Origin: an uncultured candidate division Zixibacteria bacterium
Lineage (GTDB): Bacteria > Zixibacteria > MSB-5A5 > UBA10806
Assembly: GCA_963817915.1 (NCBI GenBank)
Contig: CAWFQL010000011.1
Span: forward strand, 128,001-192,000
Reading direction: 5' to 3'
DNA length: 64,000 bases
Both the position numbers and the translations under genes were made by a program. Shown piece after piece: positions 11,248 through 46,099 of the stretch. Below the pieces are notes generated by a model. The model was not told the origin of the DNA. It searched no databases and saw only the letters and a program-made list of their open reading frames with translations. Within the stretch, counting starts at the first letter, position 1; every line of letters begins with the position of its first letter.

Positions 11248-12479
11248 AATATTCGAAGACAAAAATATTCACTTGGTCGCTGTATGATTTTGCCGATACG
11301 ATATTCTCAATGAATGTCGTCAGCCTCAATTTCCCGCTGATGATAAAAAATGTCTATAACGGCGCGGATATTTATCTTTCAATTGCCAGATCGACCGCGA
11401 TGATCGTTGTAGCATTGACTATGCCGCTTGCCGGAATAGTGGCCGATAAATATCGCCGCCGAATGCCATTGACAATCTTCTTTACAGTCGCCTGCTGCCT
11501 GGCCACTGTATTCATGGGTCAAACCAATTCCATGATCATCGATCTGGTTCTTTTCGGAATAGCCCTCTATGCCTATTCATCGGCAATGGTCTTTTACAAT
11601 GCTATTTTGCCTCAGATATCGGGCCCGGATAGAATGGGGCGGGTTTCCGGCTATGGAGTGGCATTGGGGTATATTGGCACCATATTTGGCCTGACGGTAG
11701 TAGGCTCAATTACAGGGTCGAGGGAATATTCAGCGATCTTTCCGTTGACGGCGATGTTCTTCTTTATATTCGCAATGCCATTTTTTATTACCGTAAAAGA
11801 TGAGGCTCCGGAAAAGCTCAGAGGCGTCTGGAAAATGACTGTGGAATCCATGAAACGGATATCAGATGTCTATGTAGACGCCAAATCCAAGCCTGGAATG
11901 CTCCGTTTTCTACTTGGCAGGTTCTTTGTAGTCGAGGCGCTGGAGACAATCATATTTTTCATGGCCATATATTTAAAAGAGGCGGTCGGTTTTTCCGATG
12001 CTGGCCCATTCTGGGGGAATCTTAACGAGATTACCGTCTTTCTAATTATAGTGACCATATTTACGGCGGCAGGTTCATTCGCATGGGGTTTTATTACCGA
12101 GAAGTTCGGCCCTCGAAACGCTTTATTCGCCAATGTGATTATATGGATAGTGACGCTAACCGGCATAATATTCTTCTCCGATAAAACAATCTTTTTCGTT
12201 CTGGGCTCGCTCGCCGGGATTTCGCTTGGCGGCGTCTGGACTGCTGAACGGCCGCTGCTGATAAACCTTGTCAATGACAATGAAAAATTGGCCGGCTATT
12301 TCGGCCTGTTTGCATTGTCGGGGCGAATGGCGGCTGTCGCGGGGCCGTTGATATGGGGAATCACAGTCGCGGTCTTTGATTCTTTCGGTCCGATAAGATA
12401 TCGATTCGCTGTCGGTTCCATTCTAATAATGATGATAGCGGGAATTATTATTTTAAGGAAAGTCCCCGATGCCAGATAG
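11244..12479 (+). CDS. MFS transporter (UMF1/Atg22-like)
   Basis: WSLYDFA, FYNAILP, GRVSGYGVALGYIG, about 12 TM segments. Confidence 0.9.
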   Translation: MKYSKTKIFTWSLYDFADTIFSMNVVSLNFPLMIKNVYNGADIYLSIARSTAMIVVALTMPLAGIVADKYRRRMPLTIFFTVACCLATVFMGQTNSMIIDLVLFGIALYAYSSAMVFYNAILPQISGPDRMGRVSGYGVALGYIGTIFGLTVVGSITGSREYSAIFPLTAMFFFIFAMPFFITVKDEAPEKLRGVWKMTVESMKRISDVYVDAKSKPGMLRFLLGRFFVVEALETIIFFMAIYLKEAVGFSDAGPFWGNLNEITVFLIIVTIFTAAGSFAWGFITEKFGPRNALFANVIIWIVTLTGIIFFSDKTIFFVLGSLAGISLGGVWTAERPLLINLVNDNEKLAGYFGLFALSGRMAAVAGPLIWGITVAVFDSFGPIRYRFAVGSILIMMIAGIIILRKVPDAR

Positions 12480-14084: not shown

Positions 14085-16097
14085 ATGTCAAATAAACCTG
14101 TCGACAGGCCGGGTCTTTTCTATGGTATAAAATTAAGGCATGCAGTTGCCCTATTAACCTGCCTGGCAACTATCTTGATATTGGCAGGCTTCTTTTCAGT
14201 CTCTGCCGGTCAAAAAGCGGCATTGGAGACTGTTACCTCGCAGGGACAGGCTCTGACCGAGACACTTCTGTCATCGGCTGGCATAATAATCGAATCCGAT
14301 AAACAAATTACTCAGTTGGCCATTCAGCGCCTGGTGGAATTGGTGGCCGATTACGATATTGACCAAAAAATTCCCGATGAAAGCAAATTTGAAAGCTTGC
14401 GGCAGGCATTGGGCGCATCCAAAATGGTCCTGATAGAAAAAAACAAGGTCAGCATGTCATCATCGGATGCTATTACAACTCTTAGCAACGACAAAATAAT
14501 CGAATGGCTCGATTCTCTCCAGATTGATCCTGATGCCGAGGTGATTTATGAATTCTCTACTGTCGGAGAGAGCAGAATATTCTGGGGATATTTTCCAATA
14601 ACAAATACCCTCGGTTTATTTGCCGCGATCGACTGGAAATACGGCCAATATGGCAATTCCAAATTGAGCCTCTACGATCTGCTCAATCGTGTCGGCCAGG
14701 AAACCGGTGTCGAATATATCATGATGCAGAATCAGGACGGTATCGTATTCGCCTCGAAGAAGATCCTGAGCATGCCGCGTCTTGCCGATGACCAATTCCT
14801 GGTCGACGCTCTCAAAAACGACACCACCCGCAGTCGGCTGATGATGTTCCAGGACAGACAGGTATTGGAATGTATAAGGAAATTCAAGTCCAGCGAATTT
14901 GAAGGTGTTTTTCGCGTAGGGTTATCACTTTACGGTTATCGTGAAATAGCCGCAGGCATGAAACGGCAGGTCTGGCTGGTGGTGGCCGCGCTGATTATTC
15001 TCGGAATGATCGGATTCGGAATCGTGGTCGGATTTCAGAATTTTGACGTACTGAAAAATAGCTTCAATAAGGCCCAAATAATCGCCCAAAGCCTTCTCGA
15101 TTCTATCCCCGGCCCCGTAATCGCGATTGATCACAATAAGATTATTACCGATATTAATTCCTCCGCCAGGAAGCTATTCGGAATATCCGCGATATCGCCT
15201 GTAGGCTCAGAGTATGTTAAGATATTTGCCGATGATCCATTTCACTTTAATGATATTCTCTCCAATGCCCGTGGCACTAATTTTGAAAAAATACTAGGGG
15301 ATAATAGCCAGCGGTTCTTCATTACGGCCACCCCATTAATCGAAAAAAATGGCGTGTTGATGGGAGCTATCGCCATTGCTCAGGATATCACCGATGTCAG
15401 GCGGATGGAAGAGATGTCCGAATCCAGACGCAGACTTTCGGAACTGGGTGCGCTGGCGGCATCGATGGCGCATGAAGTGCGAAATCCCCTCAACGCCATT
15501 GGAATCACGATCCAGCGTATGAAAAGCGAAATAAAGCCCGCTGAAAAAGAAGAAGATTACGCGCGTTTTCTCGACGGTCTTAAAAACGAAATCAAACGGC
15601 TAAATGAAATTATCGAAAAATTCCTCGCCGTTGCCCGTTCTGTTCGGCCGGAAATGGCGGAATATGATATTAATGATTTAATAACGCCAACCCTTGATTT
15701 ATTCAAGGGCCAGGCAGCTTTGAAAAATATAAAGATAAATAGTAATATCAAATCAGGTTTGAAGATATACTGCGATAAGGCCGGAATTACGCAGAGCCTT
15801 ATTAATATTATCAAAAATAGCATTGAGGCGATCCGGAGCGATGGCAAAATAGATGTCAACGCAAGCGATGAGAACGGGAAAATAAGAATTTCAATAATAG
15901 ATGACGGGCCCGGAATCGCCGATATCAATATCGCCATGAAACCATTTTATACATCCAAGATGGACGGCACCGGTCTTGGCCTGGCCACGGCCTCGAAGAT
16001 AGTCGCAGACCATGGCGGCGAGATGATAATCGAATCCTCGCCCGGCAAAGGGTGCAGGGTCGACTTTGTATTACCAAAAAAGGAAAATTCCAAATGA
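14085..16097 (+). CDS. Membrane PAS-domain sensor histidine kinase (ZraS/AtoS-like)
   Basis: Two TM helices, PAS, H-box [28 protein letters not shown]. Confidence 0.93.
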
Positions 16098-17432
16098 GAA
16101 TAATGGTAGTCGATGACGAAGCTCATCAGCGGGAGCTTTTAGCGGAGTTTCTCGAAAAAAATGGTCATCAGGTAATGAGGGCATCCGATGGCCAGGAGGC
16201 GATCGAATTTCTGAAGATCGATGGGGCCGAGGCGGCATTAGTAGATCTGCAGATGCCTCGCATGGACGGCCTGACCTTCATAAAGAAAGCCCTCGAGCTC
16301 TATCCCGATATGGGGATTGTTGTCATGACCGCCTACGGAACGGTAGAATCCGCAGTTCAGGCAATGAAATCAGGCGCCGCCGATTTCCTACTCAAGCCGA
16401 TCGAGCTCGATCATGTCATGATAATCCTGAAAAAAATCGAATCTAATCTCAGGCTTATCGCGGAAAATCGCTATCTAAAAAGAAAATTGGAGCAGGTCGA
16501 GAATTTCGAGGGAATTATCGGAGAATCGAATGGCATCAAAAAAGTGCTTTCCGAGATCGCCCGTATATCCCAATCCGACGCCACGGTGCTTATCAGAGGC
16601 GAATCGGGGACAGGCAAGGAGCTTGTGGCCCGCGCCATTCATTTCGCATCGCCGCGGGCCGCAGGGCCGTTACTGGCGGTAAATTGCACTTCTCTGCCCG
16701 AGACGCTCCTCGAATCAGAGCTGTTCGGTCATGAAAGAGGATCGTTTACGGGAGCGGTCGCGCGGCATCTGGGCCGTTTCGAACTTGCCAATAACGGCAC
16801 TCTTATTCTTGGATGAAATCGGCGATATCTCCCAGCCGATACAGGCAAAACTCTTGCGAGTCCTCGAAACTCATACCTTCCAGCGGCTCGGCGGAGAGAA
16901 GGATATCGCGGTCAATGTTCGAATACTGGCCGCCACCAATCGCGACCTGGAAGCGAAGGTCAAGGATGGCAGCTTCAGGGAAGATCTCTTTTACCGATTA
17001 AATGTTATTCCTATAGTGATTCCGCCACTGCGCTCAAGAAAAGATGACATACTTCGTCTGGTCGAGTATTTTATCGCAAAGTACAATAAGAAGAATAACA
17101 AATCCATTAGGGCGTTGACTCCTAAAGCGCGAGACCTGCTACTAGGTCATTCTTGGCCCGGCAATGTCCGCGAGCTTGAGAATGTCATCGAACGAGCCAT
17201 AGTCCTGTCGCAGAGCGATATTATCGATGTGGATGATATCAATCCATTTACGGCCGAAAATAGAGCTTCAGAGCTTATGACCGACAATCTGAATCTGGAA
17301 TCGGCTGAAAAAGAGATTATAACGCGAGCTCTGCAAAAAACGGATGGCAGCCTGGCTCAAGCCGCAGAATTGCTTGGAATACACAGAAATACATTAAGAT
17401 TAAAAATAAATAAATATCAGATCAAAATTTAA
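16094..17432 (+). CDS. Sigma54-dependent response regulator (NtrC family); frameshift near 16804
   Basis: REC domain, [21 protein letters not shown] restored by deleting one T, WPGNVREL, Fis HTH. Confidence 0.92.
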
Positions 17433-26728: not shown

Positions 26729-29700
26729 ATGCATCTTTTGAAGCAGGTATCGCGGATTAATTTAATATTGCCTTTCATGGTAATTTTGTCTATGGGAATT
26801 TTATCACCTGTTGTCAGCGGGGCGGCTGAATTATATCAGACAACATTTGTCCCATCTCACCCCATTATGGGCCCTTTGGAAATAGTAAATCTTAAGCATA
26901 AATCAGAACTTGTATTCGTGCAATATACGATTTCCGGCAACCGTCAAATTGCTGTTCCATACGAGGCTAAAGGCAGCAAGATAAGGCTCAATTATTCAGG
27001 GCATGATGAAATCTTAACGCTGACATTAATATTTGGCGGCGAGATAAAGGATTTTAATACACATCTGCCTGAGATAATATCCGGCAAAGACCGGATTAAT
27101 GGTCAATGGGATGATTTGATTTCATTGTCATCAGGGGCCATAATACAAGTTACCAATACATTGGAATCAAGCGTAGCCGGTGACACTACAAGTCATATGA
27201 TAGGGTTCAACACTACTACCGACACATTAAGTAGCGGTGGAATTATTATGGTGACATACCCGCCCGGATTCATAATAGATGCTATAGACAGCGCAATTTA
27301 TTCTGATAATGATCCTTCCAACGATTCCAACGAACCGCACGTAACTGCAGTCAGTGTTACAGGAGGAACTGTATTCATTCAGCTTGATTCATTGTCTCAG
27401 CAAGCAATCGCAACTTCCCGAATTGATATAAATCTTAAGCATATAGTCAATGACACAACCTCCGGTTCACGTTATGTTTACGTGCAGACAACCCGGCCTG
27501 ATGGCGAAATCGATAATAATCCGCAGATTTCAGCGCCTTTTGATATTGTGCCCGGCGCTCTTTATCGCATAAATGTCTCTCCGTCCGGCAATCTGACTTT
27601 GGCCTCCGATTCGACAATATATTTCAGCGGGATAGGACGGGATTCTTATGGCAATATTATCGGTGGACTCGTATTCGATTATCTTGTCATGCCCGATTCG
27701 CATGGCAGTATTACCAGCGGTATCTTCAGGGCGTTAAAGGCCGGAGAATGCTATGTGACCCTGACGAATGGTATTGTGACAGATTCTACGGGGCTTATTA
27801 CCGTGGAACCGGGACGGTTAAATCATTTCGGAATCGACGGTCTGCCGCTTACTCCGGTTCCCGCCGGAGTACCATTTGGAAGCGTAATGGTGACCGCCCT
27901 TGATAATCATGACAATAGAATTGTCAATTTTGCGGATTCAGTTTGGGTCACCTCTAACGATACTCTGGCTTCATTGCCGATTCATAAATTTGATCCCGCG
28001 GATTCGGGGATATTTCAATTCCCGGCGAATTCGTTTTCTCTAAGGTCTAAGGGCTCCACAAGAATAACCTTTAGCAATGGAATCATCGAAAGCATTTCGA
28101 ATCCTGTAACCGTAGTTCCCACCTCGATTCAGACGTTTGTATTCGGTTTGGGCCTGAATCAGGTGGCAGGAAATAGTTTCAGACTGCAGGTAACCGAAGC
28201 TCGCGATTCATGTTCTAATCTGACAAATGGAATCGTAGTAGTAGGGGATTCGTTAGAACCTCATTTTTCTCCCAATGGATTTCCCCCTATATTTAATGAG
28301 ATACCGGTTTCAGAAGAGGGAGTCGGATACGCGATGCAGACGCTTACCAATGCGGACACGACCGTTCTGAAGGGGAGTGTTTTTGCATCCGGCGCCGTAA
28401 TTTATACCAGTCGCATTATAGTAGAGCCCGGCAGTACAGATTACTTCGGAATTACCGACTATCCTGATACTGTTACCGCAGGCATACCGTTTTCCGGTGT
28501 CATGGTCTCGGTTTTCGATTTGTTCGGCAACTTGCAGACAAATTTCGCGGATCAAGTATATTTCACCAGCAACGATGGAAACGCTTTGCTGCCATTTACG
28601 GCCTCAAATCGATTTACTTGGCTTTCTAATAACGGCGGGCGTCATACATTCGACAATTTCTCACTTAGAACTTCCGGTATCAAGACAATCACTTTCGCCA
28701 ACGACTCGCTATCGATTACCTCTCAAAATATTGCCGTGAGACCCGCTCCAATTTCAACTTATACTCTTGTAAATCCGGGCACAATTATGGCAGGGGTAAG
28801 CCACGAACTTAGGGTTGAGAATGCGCGTGATTCACTTGCCAATTTTGCCACAGGCGAAGTAAATATTTCCGGCTTATTAAATGTGGACAATTCACCTTAC
28901 GGTATTGCGCCGACTCTAAATAGAATATCCGTGGATAGTTTTGGAACCGGGCATTCATCACAGATACTCACTTCAGCCAATAGCAATGTTATTCTTCAAG
29001 GTGACGCCAATGGTATAATTGAAAATACCGGCTCTTTCATTGTTCTGCCGGGCGATCTCGATCATTATGATATTTCCGGATTCACTGATACCCTGACCGC
29101 CGGAAATACATTCCCCGGCCCGGGAATAAATGTCGAGGTCCTCGACGCTCTTGGAAATCGAAAAACAAACTATATCGATTCAGTATATTTTGTCAGCAGC
29201 GATCCTCAACCGCAACTGCCCAATACTCAATCCTCGAAATATTACTTTAATAATTCGGGCTACAATAGATTCCCCGCGGATTCCTTTTCGCTTAGAACAT
29301 CTGGCGCGCAAACCATATCAGTAACCAACGGTACTATGTCGGCTTCATCGCAAAATATATCGGTTGCGCCAAGTATCTTGAATTCATTCAGAATTGCGGA
29401 TCCTGGTACAATAACCAGCGGAGTGCCGTTCAGTATTAATATTTTAGATGCTATCGATACCTGGAACAATCCAACTTTGGGTACTATTACTGTCTCTACG
29501 TATTCAGGAGGCGGTCCATCACCCGATGGCACGCTACCGAACTTTACGCCGATACAGCTCAATAACGGATCTGGTTCCGCGAGTCAAACTCTTTATAACG
29601 CGGATAGTACCGTTCTTTCATTATCCACTGGCGTTTTTGATTCTTTGACGGCGAATTTAGCTGTATTACCTGGCTCAGTCAGCCATTTCACTGTATTTAT

Positions 29701-32700
29701 TTATAGTCCCCAAATATCAGGAGCCCCATTCAGCGTTTCGGCATACCTGACCGCCTACGATTCCCATGGCAACATCAAACGCAATTATGATGCCTCCAGC
29801 GATACTGTCGTGATTACCGCCTCCAACGGCGGACAAATGACCAATAATATCCTGAATCAAAATGCGAGCTTCTTTAATGGTACTGCGAATCTCGTTGCTC
29901 TGAATACTACTTATTCCGGAGCTGGAGGGCCGGTAACATTCAATGCCCTATCTCAATCAGGCGCAACGGGTACATCAAACCCGGTCAATTTCAGCGCGCT
30001 TTATTGCAGCGGCCTTACGATTAATGAAACTGCCGTTTCTATCGGAGGAACGATGACCGGTTCAGTGAGTGTTCGCAATGAGGGCGGAGTCGTGGCCAAG
30101 ATAGATGATATAGGATTATACTCGGTTGGCGATCCATGGCAGGATGCGCTGGTATTCATACAACCACTGGATTCAATTGCGGCCGGCGCTGAATCGACTT
30201 ATACATTTTCGTATATTATTCCATTGGGCTTTTCGCCTTCGCATGTAAATATCGATATTCCTACTACGGCGACGATTATTGGCCGTTACGGATCATATAG
30301 TGTTTACGATACTCTTACCGGTTATCCGGATACTGTTCAAGTGCAGACTAATTCTCATCCCGGTTATGTGAACGGCTCTTTAAGCAGAGACACTTTGTCA
30401 ACGGGAGAATATTATTCACTTTCGCTCAGTCTTAGCAATTCCGGCGGCGCTGGGCTCGGCGTTTTGGATAGTTCGTATATTTATTTTTCCGATATTAGCA
30501 GCCACATATTCAGATCGAAAATTTCTACAGGCATATTTCTTCCACCGAACAGCCTGAATACTCCGGTGAATTTCGATTCGACCTTGGTCGTCGCATCATT
30601 TATTCCCGGTGATTATCAGGCCGCGATTCACTGCTTCGGCCGGGAAAATGGAATATTCGTAGTCGATACGATTGCCGTAGCAGATATAATTCATATTCAG
30701 TCTCGGGCAGTTCTCAGCTATCTTGAGAATACATTAAATCCCGATACACTCGTGGCAGGCCAGAATGCCATGCTGAGTGTTAGAGTCAGAAATAGCGGGA
30801 CATCCGAGTTTATTCTCGATAATCAATTTTCGCGCATCCATTTCGGCAATGCCCAAATGGAATTTATCGCCAATATCGATACCAGCGCCGGTCGCAGAAT
30901 AGATATTATAACCAGCGATACAACCCTGCATTTTGAACAAACCATATTATCACCGAATTTTAGCCTGGGTCAATTTACACCTGAGATTGCTATCAGGGGC
31001 AGCCAGAATGGCCGTCAAATTGAATTCAATATCGATACTAACCCGAATTCCATAAATGTCATTTCTCCATGCGCCGTTCGAATCGATTCAACTTATTCTA
31101 TTTCTCCCAACGCGCCATTTGTTAATGAGGGTCAGCAATGCTCTATACGAGTGGTAATTGAAAATACGGGAATGGAAGGGATCGATTCGGTTACTATTAA
31201 TCTTTTGCAATTCCCACGCGCGACATTTCAATCATCATTCCTGATTGAGCATCTCGATGGCGATAGCAGTATGGTCAGCCGCACATTCACTGGAGTTGCG
31301 GATTCGGTACCTAATTCAGGTCGGATTTTCAATTCAATTTTATCAGGAGGGGTAGGCAGTCGTTCCCGAATGATCGGCTTCGATTGCTCAACCATTGGAT
31401 AATACGGCGTTGTTCATGGTGGAATCCCCGGCGAATATCGTCATGCATCCCATAAATATCGTTGGCCCTGAATCCGCGCTTGATAGCATAATATCAATAA
31501 ACCAGCCGATATCGATTTCCGCTATGGCCACGAATTCGGGTCAGGCGGATATTATAGGCATTAAGAAGATGGTCTTGGATACGACCGGTTCCGGATTTAC
31601 GGTGTTGGATTCCGTAAACAGAGATTTCAATTTAGGCCAAACAGTTTCCTGGAATCTTAGAGCTCCAGGCAACGAAAGAGCTTCCTCGATTTTAAGTGTC
31701 GCTTTTCTGGATTCGCTTTTCGATAGAAATGATCTCCGATATGCAATAACACTTGGCTCTTCTTCCATAGAGTTTGTAGTCAATTCCGCTCCCACGATAT
31801 CGCATAGAGCTGAGATAGTCGGGCCGCCGGGCGCGACCGATAGTACTGTTTCCACTAATCAGGAATTTACAATTGCCGATTATTTTACTCCGGGCGGAGT
31901 ATATCAAAATTTGACCTGCAGTATTAATTTGCCATCGGGCTTTTCGACATCCGATTCGATTATCAAGCATCCTGATCCGGCCGAAAACTTCGTGCGCTGG
32001 AATGTTCGTGCTTCAACGAACGCCGGGCTCGATACCATATCAATATTAAGCTGGTTATACGGCGTCAATCTAAATGACTCTGTGGGAACCGCGCCCGAAA
32101 GAATACCTGTTACGGTTGAAAGATCGTCGTCTCTTAGGTTAACATCCAGGATTGCAGGGCCGGGCTCGGCATTAGACGGTATCTTGGAACCCGGATCGCA
32201 GCTCGAATATCGGGCGACAGTATTCAATGACGGTCAGGCAGCCGTATCAAGCGGCAGCCTTAATCTCAAATGCCCGATCTTGGGACTGGATTCTGTGCGG
32301 ACATTTAATGTCGGCGATAATATCGACTGGATTATCACGATGCCGGATACCGAAATAGCTGTACCGTTTCCGATTTGGACAAAAATTTCCAGTGTCCCGA
32401 CGGAAGAAAATATTCAAGCGCCTGCAATTACTGCCATAGATTCGTCTTCAATTACCGTGCTCGTAAAAAATCTATTACCCAGACTTATGATTACGAATTC
32501 CACCGGCTTTTCCGGCTCGCTTGTCAAAGGACAGACTCTGGATTATTTATCGCTTGAATCTGAAAAATGATGATAGAGGTGGGAGTTATACTATCGGAAT
32601 CGCATCCTTTTCATTTGATCTCAATTCAAATCCACCGGTCGATGCATCCCAACTATTCTCGTCATTAATCCTCTCCTCGGATTCAGGATCAGCTACTGCC

Positions 32701-33276
32701 AATATTGTCGATGGCAATAAAATTGTATTTGCGCTTCCCGATACGATTCACCTCTTGCCAGGCCGCTCGCTGCAATTCACAATGCAATTGGCCATTTCCC
32801 CCAATACGACTGTCGGCGATTTTTCCTTTTCGCTTTCAGAAAATGGAATCGCGGCTGTAATGATACAGCACGGCGGTCCGGCAACTCCGATTTCAGTCGT
32901 CAATTCCAGAGGAGATCCGTTTACCTGGAGCAGCAGCCCATCGGCTATATTTGAACAGAATTTTTCGGCTTCGGTCTCAAGTTATCCCAATCCATTCAAT
33001 CCAAGGGATGGCGGGGTTAAGATAGGATATTATTTAAGCCAAAATTCATCATTGGAAATAAAAATCTTTACTCTGTTCGGTGAATTGGTTTGGACTAAGA
33101 CTATCACACCTTCCGATCCTCAGGGACAAATGGGTATGCGCACTGAAGATACCGCGGTTCGCTGGGATGGCAAAAATGATTCGGGCCATGAAATCCGTTC
33201 TGGGGTCTATATCTGCATTATCAAAAACCTGACATCAGGCGAGGAGAAAAAATTAAAAATCGCTGTCGTAAAATAA
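26729..33276 (+). CDS. Giant (~2180 aa) repeat-rich surface protein with T9SS-like CTD; frameshifts near 31377 and 32554
   Basis: Three overlapping ORFs join by single-base deletions; signal peptide, Ig-like repeats, SYPNPF..FTLFGELV..WDGKND..SGVY. Confidence 0.75.
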
Positions 33277-35112
33277 TCGCGTTATCCGCGGTTTTTGTAA
33301 TTTCCTGTTTCGGCCTCGCGCTTTCGCAGGGCGATGCCGGTCGCGAATCGCCGTTTATTTTCGGCGCTGGCGGCCGTGGCATGGGGATGGGCCGGGCGTT
33401 TGTGGCCTTGAACGGCGATGCGTCGGCGCCATTCTGGAATCCCGGAGCCGCCGCGACTATCGATCGCGCCGGATTCATGGTATTTCACACATCTTTGTTC
33501 ATGGGGACTAATTACGACTGTTTTTCATTGTCTTATCCTTTTGAGACTCATGGAGTGGTCTCAATCTTTGCCGGACGACTCTCGACCGGCGATATTCAAG
33601 CACGGGACGAATTCAATCGCCTGATCAGGTCGTTTACATCTGCGGAAAATCAATTTGGGATCGGCTTCGGGCGAAATATAGCATACGGTTTTTATGCGGG
33701 AATGTCGCTCAAGGCCGCTTCGATGGAAATAAATTCAATCTCCGGATATGGTTTCGGTGCCGATGTCGGTTTGCAATTCAAACCTCATTATGTAAAAGGA
33801 TTGACTGCCGGGCTGAGCATAAACGATATCATAAAGCCCTCAATAAAATTATCTTCGGTAAGCGATCGATACCAGACTGTCTCGCGTTTCGGGCTATCAT
33901 ATACGCACGGCATTTTGAAAAATATGGAATCAACATTGGCATTACAGTATGAGACGGTCAAAGACCGAAAATCAATAACACGGGCCGGAATTGAAATGGC
34001 ATTTTATGATCATTATTTTCTGCGCGCCGGCATAGATGATTCCAGACCGACATTTGGCGCCGGCATAGATTATAATGATTTTGTGGTTCTGGATTATGCT
34101 TATGAGAATATCGAATTCTTCGGCTCCAGTCACCGAATTTCGCTGGCATTTTCTTTCGGCAAATCAATTGCCCGTTCGCGCGAGGAAGCCCGAGCTCGGA
34201 TTATACAGGACGAAAAAGAAACCTGGCAAAAAGAAGTCGAAAGCCAAAGAAAAATGGAATATAGGTCTTTTCTCGATAATGCTGATAGCCTTCGCCGGGC
34301 CGGCAAATTGGAGGACGCGCTTGGATATTACGAGCGAGCCCTGGCCATTGATAGCACTTCTCGACGTGCCAAAGCCTCCAGCGATAGCGTGATGAGCGAT
34401 ATAATTGCTCAAAGCATTTCAGTTACCCAGGACAAAAAACGGGAAGAGCTTATTTCCAATAGAATCGAGCTGGCGTTGCGGTCGTTGCGAGCCGGTCAGT
34501 ACAATGATGCGATTGCTCAATATCAAATGGTACTGGAGATCGAACCCAGCAATCCCACAGTTGTTGACCTGCTTCAATCGGCACGACAGATGCTCCAGAC
34601 TGAGATTAATAGCGTAAAATCGAAAGCTCAAGCTTCTCAGTCAGCAGGCGATTATGCCAATGCACTTGCTGGAATGGAAGAGACTTAACGATATTGCTCC
34701 GGCTGATAGCGAGGCATTGAGGGGGATAAATATCGCCAAAGGCCAATTGAAAGTCGATGGTCTTGTGGCCACAGCTGTCAACTCGATGAGAAATGGTGAA
34801 TATGCGAATGCGCTTACTTATCTTCAACAAGCGCAGTCACTTAGGCCGAACGATAAGTCTATCGGTTCACTGCTTGCGGAGGCCAAGGCAAAATCCGCGC
34901 CGCCCACGACGCTAAATGATATAAAGGCATCAAAAGAAAATTGGTCTATATATCTTAACGGTCTGGAACAGTATCAATCAGGAAAGTATTCTAAAGCCCT
35001 GGAAAATTGGGAATCGTTGCGAGAATTCTATCCCAATAATCCCGAGCTTGAGAAAAACATCAGCCAGGCCAAGAGCCGTCTTCAAACCGAGGGCGGAGCC
35101 CCCAAAGATTAG
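33252..35112 (+). CDS. PorV/PorQ-family beta-barrel fused to coiled coil and TPRs; frameshift near 34667; start uncertain
   Basis: GAGGRGMGMGRAFVA..DASAPFWNPG, LDYAY..HRISL, then TPRs; signal peptide lies upstream of the ATG at 33381. Confidence 0.8.
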
Positions 35113-35167
35113 CCTTTACAGATTCTTTTTGCTGAATTACTATTTGATGTCTGGAGCGCCTTGATTT

Positions 35168-38113
35168 ATGGGAAAAAAACCAATTAAAGAAGTATTCATG
35201 AGCTTCGCTGCCGAGGAATCCCAAATGGAGGATATCCGAAGCAGCATTCGCGATGTATTGGCCGATTCCGACCTTACAACGAAAGACGTTAATAGTGTTC
35301 TTCTGGCTCTTGAGGAAGGCTGTACCAATGTTATTCGTCATGCATATCTCTATGGCCCTGGCACCATTCGAATTAAGGTAAAGCTTTACCCTGGCAAGGT
35401 TCAATTTTCGATATTTGATCGTGGCCGGGCGTTCGACTTTGACCATTCCGATGTGCCTAATTTGGATCGCTATGTCAAAACGGGACGCAAAGGCGGTTTG
35501 GGGCTTTATCTTATTCGCAAGATGATGGATTCTGTCGATTATCATTCCCGCGATGGCGAAAATGAACTTCGAATGGAAAAAATATCCGATAAAACCAGCT
35601 CGCGATCGATTCGCATTCCAGGTTTCTCAATCCGTGTAAAATTCGCCTTATGGGCATCGCTTGTGGTATTTATGATTGTTGCGGGTGTCTTTTACTATTT
35701 TGATAATCGCGGCCGAAAAAATGCCAGAGAACGATTCTTCGATGGCTCCACGAACGCGATGGAAACATTCGTATCGGATATTGGGGATAAAATCTTATTG
35801 AGGGATTTGGATCTTAATAAATCCGCGGCGTCCTGGCTCGACGCCAACAAAAATCTGTTTTCGTTTATCGTGGTGACAGATACCGGAGGGATTATTATTG
35901 CCGATCCGGAAAGCCCTTCGCTTTTCCTTTCTGCATTTCGCGGAATTGACAGCGGAGATTATAATACTGATATCGCGGTGAAAGACAGCCTGAACAACAA
36001 AATCTTTTATTACAAAAGAGCAGCCAGGATTAATGATCAAACTGTCGGCTACGCTTATTTCGGATTAAGAGAAAGTCCTTTGAAATCCGAATTATCTCAA
36101 ACGCGTACCGGCCTGCTGTTGATTGCATTTGCGGGCCTGTTTGTAGGTTTCATGGCAGTCTATGCCTTGTCCAACTACTTTGTGAAGCCTATTCAAAAAC
36201 TGACCGAAGGCGTACTTAGATTTGGCGAGGGTAATTTAGATCAATCACTGCCGGTGGATGGTTCGGATGAATTTTCGGAGATTGCCCGGGCCTTTAATGA
36301 AATCACAGGCAAATTCAAAAAGGCGCAAGAGAATGTTGTCGAGCAGGAGCGATTGCAAAAAGAAATGCAGGTCGCTCAGGAAATTCAGCATACACTGCTT
36401 CCGCGCACTTTCCCCGATATCGAAGGTTATGATATTGCTACAGTTTACAGGGCCGCCAAAGATGTAGGCGGTGATTATTTTGATTTCGTCAGAATCGATG
36501 AAAACACGCTCGGAATTATCGTCGCCGATGTGTCCGGAAAGGGTATTCCCGGTTCATTGGTTATGACGATGATTCGAACCGCTTTGAGAATGGAAGCGAG
36601 AGGCAATTTCTCCCCCATAGATATTCTTTCGAGAGTAAATAATTTCGTTGCCGATGATGTCAAGAAGGGCATGTTCATTACCATATTTTTCATAATGCTC
36701 AATTCTGAGAGTCGGGCGATATCGTTCTCATCGGCTGGCCACAATCCCATGATTCTTTATCGCAAAGAATCGAATTCTTGCTATTTCCTGAATCCTCGCG
36801 GAATGCCGCTGGGGATAAGTCTCCCTGACGGTGTCAGTTTCGAGAAATCCTTGGAATCAGATAAAGTACAATTGAAAAAAGATGATATGTTGATTGTCTA
36901 TACCGATGGCATAACCGAAGCCATGAACAAGCTCGGTGAGCAATTCGGCAATGATAGGCTGATTCAATTCATAAGAGACAATTCAGATCTTCATCCCAAG
37001 GATTTTGCCAGCAAGCTGGATTTCGAAATCAATAAGTTTACTGGCGGCGCGCCTCAAAATGATGATATCACGTTAGTCGTTATTAAAGAAAAATTGATGC
37101 TCGACGAGGTAATATTCCAGAAACGAAGACGGCTTATAGAGATGGTAGAAAAAGAAGGCGTTCCTCTTGAAGAAGCCTGCACTCAAATGGGAGTATCGAC
37201 CTCGACCTATTATAAATATCTTCGCAGATGGCAAAAATTAGGCGATATGGGTTTATTGAATAAGAAGCTTCGCGCCGAGACCAATATAAAGCAAATTTCA
37301 ACCGAAGTCCGCAAGGAAATCTTGAAGATTGTCAGGGAAGATCCCGAGCTCGGAGGCAAAAGAATTCTTCAAAAGCTTTCGGAATTGGGAATTCAGAATA
37401 TTGATATTCGAGGGCTGTATCTTGAACTCGTAAGAATGCGCCTTAATACCAAAAAACTCAGATTAGAATATGTCGAGCGGGTTGGCGGTTCCACTCCTGA
37501 AATTCGGGCTGAACTCGAAAAAGAAATCCTCAAAGAGGTCAGCAAGAAAGAAGAATTCGATAGAGTTGAGTATATCGAAACTATTAAAAAGAATCTTGAT
37601 CAGAAAAAAGAACAGCTCGGAACGTCGGCCAGGGGGCTTGTCAGCAAGCTTCAGCAAATGGAGCCTGTTCTTGGTGATGCCAGCCTCTATGGTGAAATCG
37701 CCGCTGAACTTGGCAAACTGGGCGAGGGGGAGGATATCGCCAAATTATTTGAGAATCTAATCCTCAAAATGGCGTATAAGAATAAGGGTATCGAGAAATC
37801 ATCAGAGACAGAAATTCCTGCGCCAGCGACAATAAAGCCCATGCCCGATTTGTCCGCAGAAACACCCGTAACGGCAGGCATCGTTTCGGAAGAGGACTCA
37901 ATACCGAAAATAGCACCCAACGATAGTAATTCGGAAATAGCAATCAAGCCGGAAACCGTTGCTCCAATTCAGCCGTTACCCGAGCAGGAAAATACCCCAA
38001 TCGACGTAATTGAAAATGCCAGCAAGCCTCAAATTGATGAAGAAAAAAAGGATGAAGAATTGGATTGGGATGATTATGGTAAGAAGCTTGTTGAAAAATT
38101 TAAGAAAGAATGA
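35168..38113 (+). CDS. Membrane fusion: RsbW-like HATPase + 2TM sensor + HAMP + SpoIIE PP2C phosphatase + transposase-like HTH domains
   Basis: EEGCTNVIRHAY, DRG, GGLGL; VGGDYFD, DVSGKG, SAGH, YTDGITE, DDIT; GVSTSTYYKYLRRW. Confidence 0.9.
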   Translation: MGKKPIKEVFMSFAAEESQMEDIRSSIRDVLADSDLTTKDVNSVLLALEEGCTNVIRHAYLYGPGTIRIKVKLYPGKVQFSIFDRGRAFDFDHSDVPNLDRYVKTGRKGGLGLYLIRKMMDSVDYHSRDGENELRMEKISDKTSSRSIRIPGFSIRVKFALWASLVVFMIVAGVFYYFDNRGRKNARERFFDGSTNAMETFVSDIGDKILLRDLDLNKSAASWLDANKNLFSFIVVTDTGGIIIADPESPSLFLSAFRGIDSGDYNTDIAVKDSLNNKIFYYKRAARINDQTVGYAYFGLRESPLKSELSQTRTGLLLIAFAGLFVGFMAVYALSNYFVKPIQKLTEGVLRFGEGNLDQSLPVDGSDEFSEIARAFNEITGKFKKAQENVVEQERLQKEMQVAQEIQHTLLPRTFPDIEGYDIATVYRAAKDVGGDYFDFVRIDENTLGIIVADVSGKGIPGSLVMTMIRTALRMEARGNFSPIDILSRVNNFVADDVKKGMFITIFFIMLNSESRAISFSSAGHNPMILYRKESNSCYFLNPRGMPLGISLPDGVSFEKSLESDKVQLKKDDMLIVYTDGITEAMNKLGEQFGNDRLIQFIRDNSDLHPKDFASKLDFEINKFTGGAPQNDDITLVVIKEKLMLDEVIFQKRRRLIEMVEKEGVPLEEACTQMGVSTSTYYKYLRRWQKLGDMGLLNKKLRAETNIKQISTEVRKEILKIVREDPELGGKRILQKLSELGIQNIDIRGLYLELVRMRLNTKKLRLEYVERVGGSTPEIRAELEKEILKEVSKKEEFDRVEYIETIKKNLDQKKEQLGTSARGLVSKLQQMEPVLGDASLYGEIAAELGKLGEGEDIAKLFENLILKMAYKNKGIEKSSETEIPAPATIKPMPDLSAETPVTAGIVSEEDSIPKIAPNDSNSEIAIKPETVAPIQPLPEQENTPIDVIENASKPQIDEEKKDEELDWDDYGKKLVEKFKKE

Positions 38114-38856
38114 TTAAACTCGCTATCCTGACATCCAAAGGCGGGACAGGGAAGACTACTACCGCTATTAACCTTGGACATGGTCTGGCTTTATCCGGGA
38201 AGAAGGTGTTGTTAGTCGATTGCGATCCGCAGGGGTCAACATCGGCGGCTTTTGGTGTTGATGGCGAAAGGGGACTTTCGAATTTATTAACGGATGGTAA
38301 AGTCGATATTTATCAGGTTAGACCAAGGCTCTTTTTATTGCCGTCGGGCAAGAAACGTTTGGCTGACCTTGAGATGACATTAGCCACTATGGACGATAAA
38401 GAATACAGAATCAGCAACGCCCTGGGAAGGCTTTCGGGAAGCGATTGGGTTATTTTAGATTGCTCTCCGTCAATAAATATAATAAATTTAAATGCTTTAG
38501 GGTTTGCGGAACATCTCCTGATTCCAGCATCACTGGATTTTTTTTCGCTGGAGGGAGTTAAATCCACGATGGAATTGGCTAAAGAGATTACGGCAAAAGG
38601 AAAGGGAATGCTTGAGATTCTCGGAGTATTGCCGACATTTTATGATAGAAGGACTATTATTTCGAGGCTGGCTTTAGATGAACTGCGGAATAGCTACGGC
38701 CCGCTCGTATTTAATACTGAAATAAGATTGAATGCCGAGATAAAGAAATCGCAATGGTACAGGCAAACCGTTTTTGAATATGCCCCATTTTCTCATGGAG
38801 CTTATGATTATTATAAATTATCGAAAGAGGTCCAGGAAAGATTGGAGACGAAATAA
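38110..38856 (+). CDS. ParA/Soj-family ATPase (orphan)
   Basis: KGGTGKTT, DCDPQG, LDCSPS, GVLPTFYD. Confidence 0.92.
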   Translation: MIKLAILTSKGGTGKTTTAINLGHGLALSGKKVLLVDCDPQGSTSAAFGVDGERGLSNLLTDGKVDIYQVRPRLFLLPSGKKRLADLEMTLATMDDKEYRISNALGRLSGSDWVILDCSPSINIINLNALGFAEHLLIPASLDFFSLEGVKSTMELAKEITAKGKGMLEILGVLPTFYDRRTIISRLALDELRNSYGPLVFNTEIRLNAEIKKSQWYRQTVFEYAPFSHGAYDYYKLSKEVQERLETK

Positions 38857-38858
38857 AT

Positions 38859-39581
38859 ATGAGTGATATAAAAATATCTTTAGACAGCGCGGGTCCCAAG
38901 GGAGAAATTTCAGTAGTCAGGGTCGACGGGGTCATTGATACCATGACTTCCAGCGACCTCGAAAAAGTAATGAATTCTCTTCTTGAGAGGGGCAAATATT
39001 ATATCGTAATCGATCTCGGCGGGGTAGATTATATATCATCAGCGGGATGGGGTATATTTATTTCGAATATAAGAGAAATCCGCCAGCATTCTGGCGATAT
39101 CAAGCTGGCTCGTATGATTCCCAATGTGTACGAGATATTTGAGCTGTTGGAATTCGATAGCATTCTTAAAGCTTTTGACAGCGTCGAAAAGGCCAAATCG
39201 GATTTTAGCTTCATCAAAAGAAATGGCGCCGACTCCGGCGAAAGAGTGCCCGTAGAGGTTGCGGTTGCGGCGCTGGATTCCGCGGAACCTACTCAGAAGA
39301 TTAAAGAAGTGGCGAATCCGTCAACGAATCTGCAAGATGCTCCCAAACAGCTTTCGCAGTTAGAAAAGAAATCAACCGCTCCCGGGCTTCAGGAAATAGT
39401 TGTTGAGATGGTCATAAAGGACCCCTTCTTTTCGATATCAGAAATTAAAACCGAAATCGCCAGAAAATATCCGACCGCCCAATCTGGTTGGTGGCAGATT
39501 TGGAATGTTTTGCGTCAAAATCGCCTCTTAAGCAAGAAAAGCCGTTTTCGCCTGTCACGTTTTAAGAGCGGAGTTCGATAA
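38859..39581 (+). CDS. STAS anti-sigma-factor antagonist with C-terminal HTH-like domain
   Basis: VDYISSAGWG phosphoacceptor motif, linker, then DPFFSISEI...WNVLRQNRLLSKKSR. Confidence 0.88.
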   Translation: MSDIKISLDSAGPKGEISVVRVDGVIDTMTSSDLEKVMNSLLERGKYYIVIDLGGVDYISSAGWGIFISNIREIRQHSGDIKLARMIPNVYEIFELLEFDSILKAFDSVEKAKSDFSFIKRNGADSGERVPVEVAVAALDSAEPTQKIKEVANPSTNLQDAPKQLSQLEKKSTAPGLQEIVVEMVIKDPFFSISEIKTEIARKYPTAQSGWWQIWNVLRQNRLLSKKSRFRLSRFKSGVR

Positions 39582-39584
39582 TTA

Positions 39585-41429
39585 ATGATCAATAAGCCAA
39601 AGGCGTGGCCCTTTATAGTAATTTCATTGATGCTGGCCGGCATAGTAATAGCATCAGGGTTTTTCTTGAAAAACCTTAATGCAAGAATATCTATTTATCT
39701 GGCAGGAATATTGATATTGGGGTATTTGATCTATTCATATATCCGTGCCTCCTGGAAGGCCGCCATCATCGAAAAATTAATCAATACAGATTCAAATGAT
39801 AAGGATACCCTGGCCAATTCATTGCTTTCGGAGATAATCGCATCAGGTATTCAGAAAAAATCGATTCAGCAAGCGGCATCGGAAATCATAAAATCAAAAT
39901 TTGGCATCGATAAATTCGTAATTTATTTTCGCGATGACGATAAATTAATTCCTCGAATATATTCAAATGTTAATATTAAAAATCTGGGATATCTGAACAC
40001 CGATAAAATTAAAAAATACCTGGGTTCAAATATGGATTCCGGAATAATATTTAAGAATGACACCTTATTTCACGCCGCTGCAAAAAATAATGATAATGAT
40101 GAATTCGAATCCTATAATATTTTTGCTTTTTCCTGGGGCAAAGGCGGATTAATTCTGATAATTTTCGATGATACCATTGGGCATTTTACCGAAATATTAA
40201 AAAATGCCGACATGAACAAAATGCTTTGGCCGGGTTTGGATTATACATTAAGAGTCCATTTCGATCTCAAGGAAAATGCCGCCGATCTAAAGCAAAATCG
40301 AATAGAATTGGGTCGCGCGAAGAAAGAATTGATTGAATTGAATAAAGAACTCAACAAGAAGATGCTCGATGTCCAGTCGTTCGTCAAGATATCAAACGAT
40401 CTTTATTCACTATTCAATGAAGATCAGCTATTCCCTACATTGAAAAACACGATTAGCAATCAACTTGGGGCGACTAAAGTCGAAATCTTAAAGCCATCCG
40501 GCGACGGGACTTTCAAATTATCCGCCGAAGCTACGGGCAATTCCAATTCGGGATTTGAACTTATATTAGACAGTGAATCGGCTCTATTGAAATTATTGCA
40601 AAAAAGCGCCAAACCACTTTTAATGCCGCTGGTAGGCTCAGGATTAAGCCCCAAAGAACCATTTCTCGACGCGGCAGCCCAGGCCGGTTTTCAGATAGCC
40701 TCGCCAATAAAGGTCAGCGGCCGAATTGAATGCATTATTTTAGTGGGCGAAAAGAAGGATAAAGGACAATATCTAAACCAGGATATAGATTCATTTTATA
40801 GTATCAGTAATATTGCCTCGCTGGCATTGGAAAATATAAAACAGTATTCAACAATAGAGAAACTTTCATATACTGACAGCATGACGGGTATTTATAACTA
40901 TCGCTATTTCTATAAACGTCTCAGCGAGGAAATTCTGAGAGCTCAAAGATACAACCGTGAAATCGCATTGGTAATCATGGATATCGATAATTTCAAAACT
41001 TTTAATGATAATTTTGGCCATCAGGCCGGAGATATGGTATTAAAACAATTGTCGGAGCTGATAACTCGGACGATAAGGTCAATTGATGTTGTCAGCCGCT
41101 ATGGAGGCGAGGAATTCTGTATTATCATGCCGGATACGGGGACTGCCAATTGCAGTATTTTTATCGAACGTTTAAGAGCCGAAATTGCGGGTTTTAAATT
41201 TGAATCGGAGGCGTCCCATATTAATTCAATAACAGTTTCAGTCGGGGGAGCGGTCTACCCATATCACGGGACTAATCCCGACCGATTGATATATTGTTCT
41301 GATATGGCATTATTGAAAGCAAAATCGTCGGGCAGGAACCGCGCGTTGATGTATAGCGTAAATAGTGATGATAAAGGGGATTTAATGTCTGGGAGGTCAG
41401 ATGTCGCTAAAAGGGAATATACAGAATAG
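39585..41429 (+). CDS. Membrane GAF-like/GGDEF diguanylate cyclase
   Basis: 2 TM helices, TDSMTG, DIDNFK, RSID I-site, RYGGEEF. Confidence 0.93.
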   Translation: MINKPKAWPFIVISLMLAGIVIASGFFLKNLNARISIYLAGILILGYLIYSYIRASWKAAIIEKLINTDSNDKDTLANSLLSEIIASGIQKKSIQQAASEIIKSKFGIDKFVIYFRDDDKLIPRIYSNVNIKNLGYLNTDKIKKYLGSNMDSGIIFKNDTLFHAAAKNNDNDEFESYNIFAFSWGKGGLILIIFDDTIGHFTEILKNADMNKMLWPGLDYTLRVHFDLKENAADLKQNRIELGRAKKELIELNKELNKKMLDVQSFVKISNDLYSLFNEDQLFPTLKNTISNQLGATKVEILKPSGDGTFKLSAEATGNSNSGFELILDSESALLKLLQKSAKPLLMPLVGSGLSPKEPFLDAAAQAGFQIASPIKVSGRIECIILVGEKKDKGQYLNQDIDSFYSISNIASLALENIKQYSTIEKLSYTDSMTGIYNYRYFYKRLSEEILRAQRYNREIALVIMDIDNFKTFNDNFGHQAGDMVLKQLSELITRTIRSIDVVSRYGGEEFCIIMPDTGTANCSIFIERLRAEIAGFKFESEASHINSITVSVGGAVYPYHGTNPDRLIYCSDMALLKAKSSGRNRALMYSVNSDDKGDLMSGRSDVAKREYTE

Positions 41430-45864: not shown

Positions 45865-46083
45865 CCCCGACCTTAATGCATTTTTGTTGCATTGTATTGC
45901 ATAGTGGGTTGATTTAGTCCATTTTAGTTACCCCATATTTTAGCCTAATATTAATTTATGTTCTTATTTCACGCCGCCATTGTGGTAATATAACTTATTA
46001 CACTGTTTATATTTATAAGACAATGAGCATTAAAATTAATATCAATAAAATTAACTAAAGTTGAATCTCTCAAATCCCATTTG

Positions 46084-46099
46084 TGGCAGATATTTTGCA
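46084..46099 (+). promoter_or_regulatory. Sigma54 promoter
   Basis: TGGCAGATATTTTGCA (GG-N10-GC), AT-rich region and TGCA motifs upstream. Confidence 0.7.

Follow-up and report, generated by a model that had tools for sequence, protein, structure and literature searches.

Related helix-turn-helix domains of IS481 ancestry in a STAS protein and its predicted membrane kinase-phosphatase partner

Background

A STAS protein and a membrane kinase-phosphatase (KP) are encoded in the same gene cluster of an uncultured bacterium, and both of them appear to carry helix-turn-helix (HTH) domains. How are these domains related, where do they come from and what might they do? An initial annotation had proposed that the STAS protein has a copy of the HTH domain of its partner and that both proteins could assemble together on DNA. 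Here we study the window, i.e. the whole stretch of 64,000 nucleotides which contains these genes, together with related loci in other genomes.

The locus and its relatives

The features which we will discuss are collected in Table 1. The order of genes in the window is PorV-like, KP, ParA, STAS-HTH, GGDEF, wza, wzz, TPR, cpsD and wcaJ-like genes; the closest named relatives of the locus are Zixibacteria. Its neighbours are secretion and exopolysaccharide (EPS) genes and not an immune operon, and PADLOC gives no match for either P0001 or P0002. No sigma factor was detected in the 64-kb window among the 48 ORFs scanned, out of the 53 with at least 150 aa.

Table 1. Features of the window (positions in nucleotides, all on the forward strand)
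Feature	Position	Strand	Basis or remarks
Promoter-like site of sigma70 type before KP, TTTACA-N17-TACTAT	35115..35143	+	Consensus match only
KP, membrane kinase-phosphatase (981 aa, P0002)	35168..38113	+	HATPase-TM-periplasmic domain-TM-HAMP-PP2C-HTH1-HTH2-helical region-acidic tail
RsbW-like HATPase kinase domain of KP	35204..35581	+	PF13581, E 4e-27
SpoIIE/PP2C phosphatase domain of KP	36500..37087	+	PF07228, E 2e-48
KP HTH1, first half of IS481-type bipartite region	37100..37282	+	No STAS counterpart
KP HTH2 with its fourth helix, homologous to the STAS tail	37301..37480	+	
ParA/Soj-like ATPase, between KP and STAS	38110..38856	+	
STAS-HTH gene (240 aa, P0001)	38859..39581	+	TIGR00377 above cut-off
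STAS domain (residues 15-112)	38901..39194	+	PF01740, E 2.7e-17; relatives SpoIIAA, RsbV, TM1442
Ser61, predicted phosphoacceptor in YISSAGW	39039..39041	+	Aligns with SpoIIAA Ser58
Variable linker (residues 117-175)	39207..39383	+	Mean identity of 16% in close relatives, with pN 0.61
IS481-derived HTH2 and basic fourth helix (residues 177-235)	39387..39563	+	Profiles, model
Membrane diguanylate cyclase (GGEEF, RxxD I-site), followed by wza-wzz-TPR-cpsD	39585..41429	+	
Triple box TGCA-N7-TGCA-N6-TGCA, ahead of the wcaJ promoter of sigma54 type (46084-46099)	45877..45901	+	Conservation

When GTDB genomes were scanned for the KP HTH pair, it was confirmed in 156 stretches, and the best 80 of these 156 loci were analysed. 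A STAS gene is present in 64 of the best 80, and every one of these 64 STAS proteins has the C-terminal tail. Six of the 80 loci end too early to be judged. In the 74 evaluable ones STAS-HTH follows KP in 64 cases; the other ten have the KP HTH pair and at least 1.9 kb downstream with no adjacent STAS. These ten loci (L061, L064, L065, L071-L076 and L080) mostly continue with FadL-like and GDSL genes, and six of them are titled Bacteroidota. KSB1-type is our name for 20 loci, only two of which are titled KSB1. The record titles are taken as they stand, and a large number of records with the title Ignavibacteria fall here with Zixibacteria. The system is conserved in Zixibacteria, in the KSB1 type and in lineages labelled Calditrichota; the genes found downstream vary by lineage (EPS export versus aconitase/IDH).

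A PorV-like barrel-TPR gene stands before KP almost without exception, in the window (26729-35112) and in most loci. A secreted protein of about 1,400-2,000 aa with a T9SS-like C-terminal domain is usually also found upstream of KP, again in the window and in most loci. This neighbourhood suggests that the signal input comes from that envelope complex. In the window the large secreted protein (26729-33276) and the PorV-TPR gene (33381-35112) are split into overlapping ORFs, while their relatives are mostly single ORFs; an NtrC-like regulator (16052-17432), also encoded in the window, is split in the same way. The three splits are likely assembly indels.

The two proteins

The peptides which the initial annotation quoted from the STAS protein are indeed present in the 240-aa ORF. 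Pfam calls only the STAS domain and misses a C-terminal domain of about 60 aa, the tail. Of 64 related STAS proteins, 63 have the motif YISSAGW and the remaining one has YVSSAGW; with Ser61 aligned to Ser58 of SpoIIAA, which is an alanine in the S58A chain 1tid_B, the phosphoacceptor motif SSAG is intact, as it had been claimed.

AlphaFold predicts four helices for the tail, without any strand and with a pLDDT of 90.9. Members of the tail family match HTH_Tnp_Tc3_2, HTH_32 and HTH_21 weakly (29, 23 and 15 of 65, respectively), and the best fold match of the tail in VIA-align is a generic HTH with Z 6.0. Foldseek gave no match at E<=0.001 for either the STAS-tail or the KP HTH model. When PDB sequences were searched with the profile of the tail, repeat artefacts and weak HTH matches only came up, and a search of the ESM Atlas with the tail alone gave no usable match. 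Some apparently standalone tail proteins of 85-100 aa are probably mis-started fragments of STAS-HTH proteins; the standalone reading was dropped because the full-length P0253 shares the LTVVD-like linker.

KP has two transmembrane (TM) helices, at residues 157-175 and 316-334. The N-box, G1 and G2 kinase motifs are present in 67 of 68 full-length KPs, and the four Asp-bearing PP2C motifs in all 68. KP has no STAS match and no HTH-STAS-GHKL layout. It carries two HTHs, and the second alone has a counterpart in the STAS protein.

The STAS tail is homologous to the second HTH of KP

When the two proteins of the window are compared directly, BLASTP finds nothing. Their tail and HTH2 share 10 identical residues out of 60, and a profile made from eight sequences, which is shallow, gives E-values that are not significant (0.012 to HTH2 and 0.005 to HTH1). 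Deep profiles give a clear answer: hhalign of 65 tails against 80 KP HTH2 domains gives a probability of 97.9 and E 4.9e-13 over 58 columns. The observed score is 62.2, as compared with 9.6 +/- 1.9 (maximum 14.1) in 60 column shuffles and 11.6 for the reversed alignment. The profile-profile comparison which had been proposed as a check of the two domains therefore found them similar. The deep STAS-tail profile has E 0.076 against HTH1, which rules out that the tail is a copy of HTH1 in spite of a similar-looking LLNKKLR end.

An HMM of the STAS tail detects 62 of 80 KPs at iE<0.01, with an iE of 0.19 for the KP of the window. In the opposite direction the KP HTH2 HMM matched 19 of 64 tails, all of them KSB1-type. 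This subfamily is the bridge between both domains, and its two copies share an ELNTEKYG-like loop. In the AlphaFold models of the two domains the helices (6-16, 22-32, 40-49 and 55-64 versus 73-85, 91-100, 108-117 and 123-132) have the same spacing. The STAS tail, approximately residues 177-235, is homologous to KP HTH2.

The alignment made by eye in the initial annotation has the right register, although the pair of the window does not establish homology by itself. The shared features on which it was based survive in part. In the DP pair the P is family-wide but the D is not: 93% of KPs have N, H or Y before P. Of the pattern L..xRL.xKKxR, conservation covers the two L, S/T, K/R and the last R, but not the R before L. 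Among 5,384 ORFs and frames in the window and the loci, no further copies were found beyond KP and STAS, with the exception of one match on the opposite strand (iE 0.078).

Origin in IS481 transposases

Residues 652-765 of KP match positions 1-109 of the 284 in NF033577 (IS481 transposase), with E 2.9e-16. The match ends there: the DDE/integrase core of IS481 is absent and Pfam finds no rve. The STAS tail matches the second HTH of IS481 and the next helix, but not the first half. In a tblastn search of plasmids most annotated top matches are IS481 transposases, with 24-33% identity. The best fold matches of the KP HTH model are the bipartite DNA-binding regions of TnsB and Pax, all of them weak (E>=0.1). 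Judging from these profiles, both HTH domains derive from the N-terminus of an IS481 transposase, from which they differ by the missing core, their fixed genomic position and their diverged recognition helices. The fixed synteny argues against IS481 mobility at these loci. By analogy with other transposases the IS481 region itself would bind DNA; the part of the paper on IS481EU which was accessible notes only a weak HTH similarity for the N-termini (PMC10045372).

Was the domain acquired once and then copied, or recruited separately by each protein? We built a tree with 188 rows, thinned from 365 domains, and 65 columns, including only 7 IS481 domains; its bootstrap had not completely converged. 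A 99/91 branch separates IS481 from a group which holds the STAS tails, the fragments, KP HTH2 and three rows from GT2 synthases. The KP rows, 29 in number, make up a clade which is nested next to copies linked to STAS. AU tests with 76 rows and 65 columns, in which the groups were named after the first tree had been seen, gave p values of 0.45, 0.36 and 0.38 for a common clade of STAS and KP copies, for KP with IS481/GspC and for a STAS-only clade; none of them is rejected.

Profile scores vary with the lineage. In KSB1-type loci the STAS tail and KP HTH2 score 85 with each other, against 57 and 35, respectively, with IS481. In the Zixibacteria type, to which the window belongs, the STAS tail scores 28 bits with KP HTH2, less than the 33 with IS481. 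When all loci are taken together, the STAS and KP profiles score about 61 with each other but higher, about 90 and 75, with the copies fused to GT2, in a comparison where the GT2 set had been found with the STAS profile. A direct and ancient copy of KP HTH2, which would precede the split between Zixibacteria and KSB1 types, is the favoured but unproven origin of the STAS tail. The term paralogous, used in the initial annotation, is plausible in view of the 99/91 branch; the AU tests reject neither copying nor separate recruitment.

Selection and divergence of the two domains

Their ancestry in IS481 is clear, and one may ask whether both domains are inert remnants of an insertion sequence, joined to these genes by chance fusion. 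However, they are found in frame, at a fixed position and in several lineages, and their invariant residues are kept. We compared the window with its 11 closest loci, using proportions as synonymous sites are mostly saturated. The STAS tail has pN 0.235 against pS 0.82, with 64% identity, and the adjacent linker pN 0.61 against pS 0.74, with 16% identity; KP HTH1 and HTH2 have pN 0.16 and 0.20. With pN far below pS in the tail, 156 KP-HTH stretches and the tail present in all 64 adjacent STAS proteins, the claim of selection rather than IS debris is upheld: both domains are under purifying selection. Inert remnants are extremely improbable, and IS debris can in practice be set aside.

The residues common to both domains belong to the structural core: P, W/Y, L, the hydrophobic residues of the helices and, capping helix 4, the motif L-x-S/T-K-x-x-R. 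In their recognition helix the Zixibacteria-type STAS proteins have G-W-W-x-x-W, and KP has D-E-x-x-I-Y-D/E-E-L with an invariant Glu. The mean net charge is +8.6 in the Zixibacteria-type STAS tail, +4.2 in the KSB1-type STAS and +2.0 in KP HTH2. The mostly acidic start in KP and the conserved Trp in the Zixibacteria-type STAS are atypical for base reading, so that binding to protein or membrane is a real alternative. Contrary to what had been stated, the two partners do not have the same module: STAS has only the second HTH, and the recognition helices differ in kind.

The model of the initial annotation was that equivalent HTHs in both partners assemble together on DNA, under the control of phosphorylation. 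It would agree with their shared ancestry, with the loop common to the KSB1-type copies and with the opposite charges of the third helices, which could be complementary; there are also STAS proteins with two copies, one S-like and one KP-like (P0170 and P0171, among the matches listed). Against it stands the low identity of the window pair (10/60), and partners from the same locus are no more alike than partners from different loci (identities of 0.195 vs 0.195 and 0.275 vs 0.276). Once the background is removed, the partial distance correlation is -0.03 over 59 loci, a crude figure from pairs which are not independent. Furthermore, ten of the 74 evaluable loci have KP HTHs and no neighbouring STAS. 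A complex prediction with KP HTH1-HTH2 and the STAS tail gave 0.00 in two runs, to which we give no weight, as controls were not folded and DNA was not included. We consider this model improbable, and nothing in the data favours an obligate hetero-assembly.

Promoters and candidate operators

A site equivalent to the sigma70-type promoter of the window precedes KP in 22 loci. We did not find any conserved operator at the KP promoters, where the spacers are variable. In KSB1-type loci a STAS promoter AAAAGAG-TTGACA-N10-TTTCTAT-TAAATT is present in 19 of 20 cases (L041-L079; for example L066, approximately 11550-11590). Its imperfect dyad, with a (T)TTCTAT-like stretch before the -10 region, is a weak candidate for an autoregulatory operator.

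A sigma54-type site is found before wcaJ in all 16 loci which have this gene, and the triple TGCA box in 15 of them. A lone box in the window is within chance, since 25 of 100 shuffles contain one when one mismatch is allowed; the evidence is its conservation. We considered this box as an operator for STAS-HTH, but it is more likely a site for an enhancer-binding protein, given the sigma54-type promoter. Its layout fits such a protein by the NtrC-type consensus, an NtrC-like regulator is encoded in the window, and an IHF-like stretch is also found upstream of the wcaJ-like gene. The box is a candidate enhancer for the EPS genes.

Possible functions

The reading which we prefer, tentatively and at somewhat less than even confidence as a whole, is a two-protein partner switch without a neighbouring sigma factor, in which STAS-HTH would itself be the output. 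KP would read a periplasmic signal through its TM-HAMP region. Its RsbW-like kinase and PP2C phosphatase would set the phosphorylation state of Ser61, as their intact motifs and the constant adjacency of the genes suggest. By analogy with CapS, phosphorylation might alter the oligomerisation of STAS or its binding to partners, and in this way the DNA binding of the flexibly tethered HTH. Both the phosphorylation and the DNA binding of STAS-HTH are predictions. The HTH1-HTH2 region of KP, a domesticated IS481 region, most likely keeps the enzyme near the chromosome and thereby close to the protein on which it acts, with no need of the STAS HTH, and the tail would have acquired a different surface by divergence after copying. 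Likely targets would be the envelope and EPS genes of the locus or the promoter of the module itself. The reading is favoured by the basic charge of the tail, by the regular pairing of both genes and by the correlation between STAS and PP2C distances (r 0.92). Against it speak the failure to find a conserved operator at the KP promoters, the better fit of the wcaJ box to an enhancer-binding protein, the atypical recognition helices, the merely generic HTH matches of the tail model and the change of downstream genes from one lineage to the other.

Two other readings deserve attention. In one of them the HTHs would bind the nucleoid or a partner without specificity, and STAS-HTH would be a phospho-switchable adaptor of ParA which positions membrane signalling and EPS export, with no role in transcription. 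The gap between parA and STAS-HTH is only 2 bp, ParA is found in each of the 44 loci whose tail is of the DPF/GWW type and in none of the 20 KSB1-type loci, and no operator was found at the KP promoters. In addition, GT2 synthases and GspC proteins carry the IS481-derived module on the N-terminal side of their predicted TM helices. However, the match of ParA with tail type is one lineage split and not a set of independent events, the KSB1-type loci have no adjacent ParA, and the search in which the GT2 and GspC fusions were found had started from the STAS tail. This reading is unlikely. The ParA of the window (38110-38856) has Glu, and its relatives Gln, at the position which we assume to be that of the DNA-binding Arg218 of Soj; its nucleoid binding may be altered.

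In the other reading, slightly less probable, STAS would contact the downstream diguanylate cyclase (DGC) or another protein, as in SypA, HsbA, BgrV or SiaC, and the HTH-fold tail would be an interaction surface. The GGDEF gene starts 3 bp past the STAS-HTH gene, RxxD and GGEEF are intact in 37 of 39 motif matches, and the Trp-rich helix suits protein binding. Partner switches which control DGCs are known, according to the accessible part of PMC8457831, and in SypE/SypA a bifunctional kinase/phosphatase with a downstream STAS governs syp polysaccharide biofilms, as stated in the part available of PMC10120452. On the other hand, the 20 KSB1-type STAS-HTH loci keep the tail with no DGC in the flanks searched, and the bipartite HTH of KP would be left unexplained.

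Comparison with known systems

A literature search, with most subscription papers outside its scope, found no paper on this system. RsbU/RsbV/RsbW and SpoIIE/SpoIIAA/SpoIIAB share with our system the two catalytic domains and the acceptor domain, whose motifs are intact here. In contrast to them, kinase and phosphatase are fused in a membrane protein, STAS has an extra domain and no sigma factor was found among the ORFs scanned in the window.

The action of a STAS protein directly on DNA has been shown recently, in 2026, for CapS, a STAS-wHTH repressor which phosphorylation releases from DNA (PMC13373217). As far as the accessible part of that paper goes, CapK/CapS is similar to our system in having a STAS-HTH with a SpoIIAA-type serine and a GHKL kinase partner, which also carries an HTH; no sigma factor takes part in CapK/CapS, and none was found among the ORFs scanned here. 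The differences are substantial: the winged HTH of CapS is MarR/ArsR-like, whereas the tail found here is all-helical and derived from IS481. CapK has a HTH-STAS-GHKL layout and is activated by ssDNA, whereas KP has a two-TM sensor, kinase, HAMP, PP2C and a C-terminal bipartite HTH. CapK/CapS lies beside immune operons, and the present system beside secretion and EPS genes. By analogy it would work like CapK/CapS without being a member; it would be best classed among partner-switching systems, with domesticated IS481 domains. It appears to be an independent solution for STAS on DNA: the HTH is of another kind, the sensor sits in the membrane, the phosphatase is built in, and the locus is tied to genes for the envelope and exopolysaccharide. 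It is also a clean bacterial example of the domestication of a transposase DNA-binding domain.

SypE/SypA of Vibrio fischeri (PMC10120452), HsbR/HsbA, BgrSTUWV and SiaABCD (PMC8457831) also have a kinase and a phosphatase which act on a STAS-like output, with a link to polysaccharide or DGC. SypA is a single-domain STAS protein (PMC10120452), while here both partners have HTHs of transposase origin. The sources, in the parts available, describe no HTH on the Syp, Hsb, Bgr or Sia partners, and in our system a ParA gene separates the two partners in Zixibacteria-type loci.

Other proteins with the IS481-derived region

A profile search of the whole library detected 607 proteins at E<=0.001, 150 of which are listed. 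Besides STAS fusions, the matches listed contain membrane GT2 synthases with two N-terminal HTH1-HTH2 pairs (P0156, P0205, P0217, P0219, P0239, P0260 and others) and the GspC-PDZ type II secretion proteins P0142 and P0248, with two to four tandem N-terminal HTH2 repeats. It is conceivable, but rather unlikely, that the IS481 DNA-binding region was domesticated several times over, each time as a portable tag on the cytoplasmic side of envelope machines of the inner membrane (KP, GT2, GspC). The STAS copy of Zixibacteria would then be a phospho-switchable, ParB-like adaptor which, with ParA, couples chromosome position to exopolysaccharide export. If true, it would represent a signal-controlled tether from nucleoid to envelope made from transposase parts. 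The matches listed also include one DnaJ fusion, P0154.
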